A DNA stretch of 47,142 nucleotides. It comes from Escherichia phage 2G7b. The position numbers and the translations under genes are program-made. The stretch lies in the sequence record NC_049954.1; one strand, written 5' to 3'. The notes under the pieces are model-generated. The model saw nothing but the letters and a program-made list of their open reading frames with translations. It did no database searches and was not told the DNA's origin. The stretch's first letter is position 1. Every line of letters begins with the position of its first letter. This document shows positions 40,375 through 41,512 of this stretch, one piece after another.

Positions 40375-40815
40375 ATGAAAAAACTAACCTTTGAAATTCG
40401 ATCTCCAGCACATCAGCAAAACGCTATTCACGCGGTACAGCAAATTCTTCCAGACCCAACCAAACCAATCGTAGTAACCATTCAGGAACGCAACCGCAGC
40501 TTAGACCAGAATCGAAAGCTTTGGGCTTGCCTTGGTGACGTCTCTCGTCAGGTTGAATGGCATGGTCGCTGGCTGGATGCAGAAAGCTGGAAGTGTGTGT
40601 TTACCGCAGCATTAAAGCAGCAGGATGTTGTTCCTAACCTTGCCGGGAATGGCTTTGTGGTAATAGGCCAGTCAACCAGCAGGATGCGTGTAAGCGAATT
40701 TGCGGAGCTATTAGAGCTTATACAGGCATTCGGTACAGAGCGTGGCGTTAAGTGGTCAGACGAAGCGCGACTGGCTCTCGAATGGAAAGCGCGATGGGGA
40801 GATCGGGCTGCATGA
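40375..40815 (+). CDS. ninB: NinB (recombination protein Orf)
   Basis: Start at MKKLTFEIRSPAHQQNAIHAVQQILPDPTKPIVVTIQERNRSLDQNRK.. inside tool ORF 40357..40815; coordinate may be off by 1. Confidence 0.85.
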   Translation: MKKLTFEIRSPAHQQNAIHAVQQILPDPTKPIVVTIQERNRSLDQNRKLWACLGDVSRQVEWHGRWLDAESWKCVFTAALKQQDVVPNLAGNGFVVIGQSTSRMRVSEFAELLELIQAFGTERGVKWSDEARLALEWKARWGDRAA

Positions 40816-41339
40816 CTATCAAATCAAATACGCCAGCACACGACAAGGACTGCTGGCAAACGCCGCTTTGGCTTTTTGATGCACTGGATATTGAGTTTGG
40901 ATTCTGGCTGGATTCGGCAGCGAGCGACAAAAATGCTCTGTGCGCTCACTGGCTAACTGAGGACGACGACGCGCTCAATTCTGAGTGGGTAAGCCACGGT
41001 GCAATCTGGAATAACCCACCGTACAGCAATATCAGGCCGTGGGTGGAAAAAGCCGCTGAGCAGTGTATACAACAGCGACAGACGGTAGTGATGCTTGTGC
41101 CAGAGGATATGTCTGTCGGATGGTTCAGCAAGGCTCTGGAGAGTGTTGACGAAGTTCGTATTATCACTGATGGACGGATTAATTTTATCGAACCATCGAC
41201 AGGGCTGGAGAAGAATGGAAACAGCAAAGGCTCCATGCTGCTGATTTGGCGACCGTTCATCAGTCCTCGACGGATGTTTACTACCGTATCCAAAGCGGCA
41301 TTGATGGCGATCGGGCAGGGCGTCAGGAGGGCTGCATGA
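40812..41339 (+). CDS. DNA N6-adenine methyltransferase (phage Dam-like)
   Basis: Start [31 protein letters not shown].. with NPPY motif (IWNNPPYSN); start overlaps ninB stop. Confidence 0.75.
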
Positions 41340-41512
41340 GACGACAGCGACGAAGCATCACCGACATAATCTGCGAAAACTGCAAATACCTTCCAACGAA
41401 ATGCTCCAGAAATAAACGCAAGCTAATCCCAAAAGAATCTGACGTAAAAACCTTCAATTACACAGCCCACCTGTGGGATATCCGGTGGCTAAGATATCGT
41501 GCGAGGAAATGA
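41336..41512 (+). CDS. ninE: NinE
   Basis: Start [58 protein letters not shown]; overlaps methyltransferase stop. Confidence 0.7.

Follow-up and report, generated by a model that had tools for sequence, protein, structure and literature searches.

The Methyltransferase Gene and Its Locus

The window analyzed here is the whole 47,142-nucleotide (nt) stretch of DNA of Escherichia phage 2G7b (NC_049954.1), and the subject of this analysis is a gene in its nin region that encodes a phage Dam-type N6-adenine DNA methyltransferase (MTase). We consider this MTase to be a GATC-specific phage Dam, whose gene serves as a delayed-early nin cassette that supplements limiting host Dam during lytic replication, with a probability of roughly 0.85. 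Its N6-methyladenine (m6A)-forming activity on GATC is suggested by its 99% identity to the protein encoded by orf32 of phage VT2-Sakai, together with the literature on M.EcoVT2Dam and on the Dam of phage T1. On the basis of this sequence similarity and analogy, the window MTase most likely converts GATC to G(m6A)TC.

An earlier, sequence-only reading of this DNA had described an N6-adenine methyltransferase of ~175 amino acids (aa) with an NPPY motif, situated between ninB and ninE where lambda has other nin open reading frames (ORFs), with its start overlapping the ninB stop and the ninE start overlapping its own stop. This description was borne out in each part. The MTase has 175 aa with NPPY at residues 68-71 and matches PF05869 over its full length, both neighbors are named by Pfam, the interval between ninB and ninE in lambda is occupied by ninC and ninD, and both overlaps are found in the sequence as 4-nt ATGA. 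The MTase gene is real far beyond chance. The features at this locus are:

40375-40815, + strand: ninB/orf (ATG 40375, TGA 40815), the upstream neighbor, encoding a recombination mediator of 146 aa (Pfam PF05772 at 1e-54; phrog_72 at 1.5e-58; NinB in Escherichia phage PhiR11_1)
40798-40801, + strand: GGAG, a Shine-Dalgarno-like sequence of putative function within the ninB coding sequence, 10 nt 5' of the MTase ATG
40805-40815, + strand: first copy of the 11-nt GGGCTGCATGA, in which the ninB stop TGA (40813-40815) overlaps the MTase start ATG (40812-40814)
40812-41339, + strand: the gene for the phage Dam-type N6-adenine DNA MTase (ATG 40812, TGA 41339), 175 aa
41013-41024, + strand: codons of N68-P69-P70-Y71, the catalytic motif IV of the MTase
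41325-41330, + strand: AGGAGG, a putative Shine-Dalgarno sequence within the MTase coding sequence, 5 nt 5' of the ninE ATG
41329-41339, + strand: second copy of GGGCTGCATGA, in which the MTase stop TGA (41337-41339) overlaps the ninE start ATG (41336-41338)
41336-41512, + strand: ninE (ATG 41336, TGA 41512), the downstream neighbor, 58 aa (Pfam PF05322 at 2.9e-40, profile positions 1-58 of 58)
41515-41856, + strand: ninX, 113 aa, the next gene of the packed block (Pfam PF10765 at 7e-17; NinX in PhiR11_1)

At both junctions of the MTase gene, the ATG of the downstream gene uses the TG of the upstream TGA, which results in the 4-nt ATGA overlap. When both strands of the window were searched, GGGCTGCATGA was found at two sites only, which are the two ends of the MTase gene; thus, the ninB and MTase proteins each terminate in ...RAA*. 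The ninB/ninC junction of lambda has the same GGGCTGCATGA, and the sequences diverge directly 3' of it. In VT2-Sakai, the GGGCTGCATGA junction is retained although the ninB allele of that phage differs, and the MTase homologue of Pectobacterium has the terminal sequence GGAGGGCTGCATAG. GGGCTGCATGA looks like a microhomology or boundary sequence for the exchange of nin cassettes.

The order of genes is O-P-ren-(terminator)-ninB-MTase-ninE-ninX-orf64-rusA-ylcG-Q. As is typical of a nin region, the block is flanked by the replication genes and Q and follows a tR2-like terminator, and its genes are joined by ATGA junctions. ATGA overlaps are present at 5 of the 10 junctions from O to Q, and about 21 such stop/start overlaps are found on the + strand of the window. 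Given that ATGA junctions are a hallmark of all lambdoid nin regions (PMC8022706), those at the MTase gene are genuine, yet ordinary. Further downstream, a 64-aa ORF (41849-42043) overlaps ninX by 8 nt and has a weak PHROG match, while rusA (42063-42425), which encodes a Holliday-junction resolvase (PF05866), has an apparent GTG start and overlaps the small gene ylcG (42422-42562; phrog_2705) through another ATGA.

Family Membership and Conserved Motifs

The MTase matched Pfam PF05869 (Dam) with an E-value of 2.1e-65 and 220 bits against a cutoff of 28.1 (profile positions 1-167 of 169), and this was its sole Pfam match at E <= 0.01. It also matched the NCBIfam equivalog TIGR01712 ("phage N-6-adenine-methyltransferase") with 264.8 bits against a cutoff of 97.05 (profile positions 1-165 of 165) and, among the PHROGs, phrog_111 ("DNA methyltransferase") at 6.7e-88. 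The characteristics of an orthodox Dam (alpha-class, PF02086, such as E. coli Dam, T4 Dam and DpnM) were not found in the MTase, which had no PF02086 match, no FxGxG motif I and no inserted recognition domain.

In an alignment of 50 diverse family members, T17, D34, N68, P70, R122 and F125 were invariant, and W15, P18, F31, A37, W59, P69, Y71, A81, L95, W104 and N137 were nearly invariant. Within the NPPY motif, P69 and Y71 were at least 90% conserved in these members, and all four residues were invariant across the Dam enzymes of VT2, HP1 and T1. The MTase lacks the canonical FxGxG motif I, as does the whole aligned family. In its stead, a conserved F31-x-x-D34-x-A-A37-S segment is found at beta1, which, judged by its position, is a putative binding site for S-adenosylmethionine (AdoMet). 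The sequence-only reading had proposed that its assignment would fail if a conserved AdoMet-binding motif were absent on alignment. FxGxG is indeed missing, but its loss is the normal state of this family, whose members have the F-x-x-D-x-A-A-S segment instead, and the assignment as an MTase is therefore not refuted.

Predicted Structure

A sequence search of PDB with the MTase returned only a chance-level match (SdiA, E 0.3) and no solved structure of the family; the structure was therefore predicted and a fold search was used. The AlphaFold2 model, built from the 50-member family alignment, had a predicted local distance difference test (pLDDT) score of 95 and a predicted template-modeling score (pTM) of 0.90. 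It is one compact alpha/beta domain of the Rossmann type that spans all 175 aa, in which an N-terminal helix bearing the WxTP motif precedes the core and beta1 is formed by residues 31-34. The model predicts no separate target-recognition domain.

In a Foldseek search against PDB, the best match to this model was PCIF1/CAPAM, a cap-specific adenosine-N6 methyltransferase (query template-modeling score, TMq, 0.63; E 4e-5), followed by TrmM, M.BseCI, CamA and EcoR124I HsdM. E. coli Dam was a weak match that ranked 24th with a TMq of 0.34. Against BFVD, phage models annotated as 'DNA N-6-adenine-methyltransferase' were matched with TMq up to 0.89. PCIF1 and the MTase domain of DIRS1 belong to Group 2 of the TaqI/EcoKI-like N6-adenine (N6A)-MTases, in which an N-terminal helix positions the motif-IV asparagine (PMC4738411). 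As far as the predicted model goes, the fold matches of the window MTase agree with this published group.

Relatives with Reported Specificity

The MTase is identical to VT2-Sakai orf32 (NP_050531, 175 aa) at 173 of 175 residues. We noticed that orf32 is the only methyltransferase annotated in VT2-Sakai, and no MTase domain was found by Pfam in the 2806-aa giant polyvalent protein of this phage. Because no other MTase was found in VT2-Sakai, orf32 is taken to be M.EcoVT2Dam, for which GATC is the reported target (Radlinska & Bujnicki 2001, as cited in PMC6602927). The product of the 'dam' gene (CM2) of phage Phi24B is 100% identical to NP_050531, and the same gene is found in HK97, Min27 and 933W-type phages (PMC3342100).

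The Dam of phage T1 (YP_003925, 237 aa) is also a PF05869 member, with 33% identity to the window MTase. It is GATC-specific by experiment: DNA of T1 grown in a dam- host was DpnI-sensitive, and GATC was unmethylated there after deletion of the phage dam gene. Even in dam+ cells, where host Dam methylated T1 DNA only in part, the burst size fell to about 60% upon this deletion (PMC10470545). The Dam of Haemophilus phage HP1 (orf13, 173 aa) has the same size, belongs to the same family and is 38% identical to the window MTase. Its cloning as a phage Dam methyltransferase is cited (Piekarowicz & Bujnicki 1999, in PMC7556043), and its gene is the last in an early operon, upstream of a terminator.

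Expression and Translational Coupling

One further feature, upstream of ninB, bears on the timing of expression:

40327-40358, + strand: a tR2-like intrinsic terminator between ren and ninB, found by a terminator scan (fold -17.5 kcal/mol, z-score -2.5)

Its hairpin is GC-rich, AGGCCTGC...GCAGGCCT, and is followed by the T-run TTTTTATTT. It is positioned as is the ren-ninB gap of lambda, which we take to be the position of lambda tR2. Lambda genes located past tR2 are delayed-early and require N antitermination. A tR2-like terminator upstream of ninB would therefore place the nin genes, including the MTase gene, behind an N-antitermination-dependent barrier. In Phi24B, the product of dam (CM2) was found to be expressed, with a significant change in the transcript level upon induction (PMC3342100).

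Translational coupling at the MTase junctions is plausible from the sequence, and coupling in the nin region was already described as general (Kroger & Hobom 1982; Cheng 1995, both as cited in PMC8022706). The RNAs at the two junctions were not unusually structured, with z-scores of +0.6 and +1.8.

Other candidate elements in this part of the window were rejected. The promoter-like sites at 41137-41164 and 41341-41370 were weak, with 9 of 12 matches, and only 6 such sites were counted in the region compared to 9.2 in shuffled sequence. An Rfam scan of 39500-43200 yielded no match. An antisense ORF at 40946-41293 (- strand, 115 aa), which matched phrog_37455 ('unknown function') at 5e-74, had 3-10 stops in diverged homologues, and it is in the antisense frame that shares its third codon positions with the sense gene. 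This ORF was treated as a shadow ORF, and phrog_37455 was probably built from spurious antisense gene calls.

Distribution and Source Relatives

The MTase gene was found with at least 95% nucleotide identity in 1566 of 5426 complete E. coli genomes (about 29%), with up to five copies per genome, and its carriers include Nissle 1917 and the type strain. Among the genome matches listed, the annotation order was ninB, phage N-6-adenine-methyltransferase and ninE. The family is present in 2150 of 50,697 phage records and has 8996 cluster representatives at 50% identity. Across the genera of Enterobacterales, the MTase is conserved with a protein identity of 62-79%. The homologues in Pectobacterium and Providencia prophages (66-79% identity) are tightly packed between the replication genes and Q without ninB, and the Yersinia homologue (69%) is part of a phage-like block of tightly packed genes, near which neither Q nor ninB was called. 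Such varied early-region contexts suggest that the MTase gene is an interchangeable cassette of phage early regions. In Salmonella P22-like phages, about 137 base pairs (bp) are found in the position of the MTase gene, which are annotated as ninD in phage ST104. Direct joining of ninB to ninE was considered and rejected: a synthetic junction from which the MTase gene was deleted was matched in two pieces in all 40 records listed, and none of these had the precise deletion.

The 1.6 kilobases (kb) around the MTase gene are 100% identical in DNA sequence to PhiR11_1 (PV340547.1), whose annotation has the same order: ren, NinB, "methyltransferase protein", NinE, NinX, RusA, YlcG, Q and an OmpC-type porin (as OmpD). 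The MTase gene is thus already known, as it is annotated in this identical phage record and its near-identical VT2-Sakai orthologue was cloned, named and described as specific for GATC in 2001.

The window as a whole (1-47142) is a lambda-like genome of mosaic composition, with its layout running from the terminase end. Its structural (left) arm is ~97% identical to PhiR63_1, while its early/right arm (about 29897-47142) is 99.8% identical to PhiR11_1. In the records that matched the window, an omptin (OmpT-like) protease and an alpha/beta hydrolase are annotated in the central region. An OmpC/NmpC-type porin gene of 380 aa (43220-44362, - strand) is found between Q (42648-43031) and the lysis genes, and it is annotated as OmpD, OmpC or NmpC in the matching phages. 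This porin, which presumably resembles those encoded by nmpC of prophage DLP12 and lc of phage PA-2, is probably a lysogenic-conversion moron.

Fusion proteins that contain the MTase were also found in databases. P0002 (233 aa) and P0023 (235 aa) are in-frame MTase-NinE fusions (...GVRRGG-MRRQRRS...), and the length of P0002 equals 175 + 58 aa. The 41 member sequences of P0002 all come from Logan assemblies. Such fusions could represent a genuine variant of the junction that has lost the ATGA stop, or else an error of assembly or sequencing that recurs. In P0121 (370 aa), the N-terminal part of replication protein O is joined to the MTase from residue 25, and this chimera presumably derives from a deleted prophage.

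Proposed Function and Alternatives

The sequence-only reading had suggested that the MTase protects against host restriction or affects gene regulation. These suggestions are generic, and a more specific function, Dam-like methylation of GATC, is favored by the evidence. We propose that the MTase would act as a minimal AdoMet-dependent N6-adenine DNA methyltransferase of 175 aa without a target-recognition domain. Its gene would be reached by transcription from pR only when N allows read-through of the tR2-like terminator, which would make it a delayed-early lytic gene with little or no expression in the repressed prophage, and it would be translated from a polycistronic mRNA with stop-start overlaps of ninB, the MTase gene and ninE. 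The enzyme would raise GATC methylation of the fast-replicating phage DNA, which host Dam may not be able to methylate fully. The progeny DNA would in this way be shielded from nucleases or DNA-binding proteins that act on unmethylated or hemimethylated GATC, and a better yield of progeny would be expected. Consistent with this proposal, host Dam leaves the virion DNA of both P22 and lambda undermethylated (PMC8022706). The gene with its family, fold and motifs, its near-identity to orf32 of VT2-Sakai and its genomic context come from the present analysis. The GATC specificity of VT2 and T1 Dam and the burst benefit to T1 are taken from the literature, while the timing, the coupling and the precise benefit are what we infer for the window MTase.

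Several considerations weigh against this proposal. The GATC activity of the exact allele in the window is deduced from its relatives, and for M.EcoVT2Dam both the specificity and the identification with orf32 depend on a secondary citation and on finding no other MTase in VT2-Sakai. An extra GATC methylase seems redundant in a dam+ host, the function of phage Dam enzymes is described as 'still not well understood' (PMC7556043), and the selective benefit to lambdoid phages would follow by analogy. The Phi24B gene product was detected in lysogen cultures, which may reflect spontaneous induction rather than strict lytic-only expression. In addition, the MTase gene and ninE each have their own Shine-Dalgarno-like sequence, and coupling may therefore not be required.

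It is conceivable, if unlikely, that the phage Dam, rather than being simply redundant with host Dam, is a specific counter-measure, which keeps replicating and recombining phage DNA fully methylated against host systems that sense unmethylated or hemimethylated GATC. Candidate targets may include MutH nicking of recombination heteroduplexes, SeqA sequestration, MboI-type restriction or an unrecognized methylation-sensing defense. If this were true, it would be no accident that the MTase gene is placed beside ninB and rusA, both of which are recombination genes, and this placement would have a function. In a more speculative variant, NinB would assist the MTase, which has no recognition domain of its own.

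We regard as quite improbable that the MTase methylates a motif other than GATC or has relaxed specificity, and serves as a broad anti-restriction device like Hia5, Hin1523 and M.EcoGII. Loose specificity might follow from the lack of a recognizable target-recognition domain in the predicted structure, and non-specific adenine MTases of phages and prophages do exist (PMC3299994). GATC is also under-represented in the window (128 observed vs. 209 expected under a maximal-order Markov model; ratio 0.61), so that GATC methylation would cover relatively few sites. CTAG (0.46), GGCC (0.66) and TATA (0.67) are low in the window as well, all of these ratios being for the window only. However, the characterized non-specific enzymes belong to other families, such as Hia5, which is Dam/DpnM-like with FxGxG and has DPPY at ~residue 194 (PMC3299994). 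All three PF05869 members with reported specificity (VT2, T1 and HP1) are described as GATC or Dam enzymes, and the window allele differs from VT2 orf32 at two variable positions only. Moreover, a methylome study of Shiga toxin-producing E. coli ascribed no unexplained motif to the VT2 Dam gene, of which strain 95NR1 has two copies. Kinship of the window MTase with Hia5 and Hin1523 was rejected, as with 175 aa, NPPY at residue 68 and no FxGxG it is set apart from these enzymes as described in PMC3299994. The MTase of a Pseudomonas prophage (PMC4936722) is an unrelated enzyme that forms N4-methylcytosine (m4C).

It is very improbable that the MTase is a passenger or relic without significant activity in this phage, or that it acts on RNA rather than DNA. 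Its closest solved structures are those of PCIF1/CAPAM, which forms N6,2'-O-dimethyladenosine (m6Am) at the mRNA cap, the nin genes are dispensable for growth of lambda (PMC8022706), and databases commonly contain truncated or fused variants of it, such as P0121, P0002 and numerous fragments. Against this, the ORF is intact with all six of the invariant residues present, the gene is conserved in the E. coli genomes and across the genera of Enterobacterales at the identities given above, and activity on DNA is reported both for the near-identical VT2 enzyme and for its T1 homologue.

Least probable of all is that the MTase acts together with NinB/Orf, its putatively coupled neighbor and a DNA-binding protein of the RAGNYA fold, which would supply DNA binding or help in base flipping. 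The stop/start overlap with ninB would favor coordinated synthesis of the two proteins, the Orf family is implicated in base flipping and Orf has the RAGNYA motif (PMC4118853), and the specificity domains of Type I MTases are also of the RAGNYA fold (PMC4738411), but the homologues of Pectobacterium, Yersinia and Providencia as well as T1 and HP1 Dam lack an adjacent NinB, the same ninB junction precedes the unrelated gene ninC in lambda, and a preference for mismatches or bulges was not found for Orf or YbcN (PMC4118853). Judged by its title as cited, the paper on VT2 Dam describes the cloning of the gene, whose product may be active independently of NinB.

As a discovery, the MTase gene matters little, given that it is annotated in the identical phage record and is common in E. 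coli. The questions of interest concern the whole family, namely why phages of dam+ hosts carry a GATC methylase and how an enzyme of 175 aa that has no recognition domain attains GATC specificity, and the window provides no new handle on either of them. GATC methylation that tops up host Dam is the function that we favor, and it is against this background that the MTase is compared with known systems below.

Comparison with Known Methyltransferases

Like the window MTase, the eukaryotic Group-2 enzymes PCIF1/CAPAM and the MTase domain of the DIRS1 retrotransposon have an N-terminal helix before the core and an NPP(Y/F) motif, with sequence identities to the window MTase of 14-17%. PCIF1 differs in being an RNA cap methyltransferase of ~700 aa that has a WW domain, a helical domain and another substrate.

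The reported product of host Dam and T4 Dam (alpha-class, PF02086) is G(m6A)TC, as it is for the family of the window MTase. These enzymes, however, belong to another family and have FxGxG and an inserted winged-helix recognition domain. Given that the window MTase falls outside PF02086 and that its fold similarity to E. coli Dam is weak, its GATC specificity would be convergent. Sequence similarity is likewise lacking between T1 Dam and host Dam (PMC10470545).

Within PF05869, HP1 Dam is encoded by a P2-like phage of another host, where the ninB and ninE neighbors are absent. T1 Dam and the window MTase have the motifs WxTP, LDxAAS, NPPYS and RxxF in common. Unlike the window MTase, T1 Dam has an N-terminal extension of ~45 aa and a 14-aa insertion and is encoded by a virulent phage and not within a nin region.

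The closest counterpart is orf32 of VT2-Sakai, a Shiga toxin 2 (Stx2) phage, which has the same placement between ninB and ninE with ATGA junctions. The window MTase differs from it by two substitutions, D51 for A and N135 for K. Both of these positions are also variable among the VT2, HP1 and T1 Dam enzymes, and judged by this alignment the two differences are not critical.

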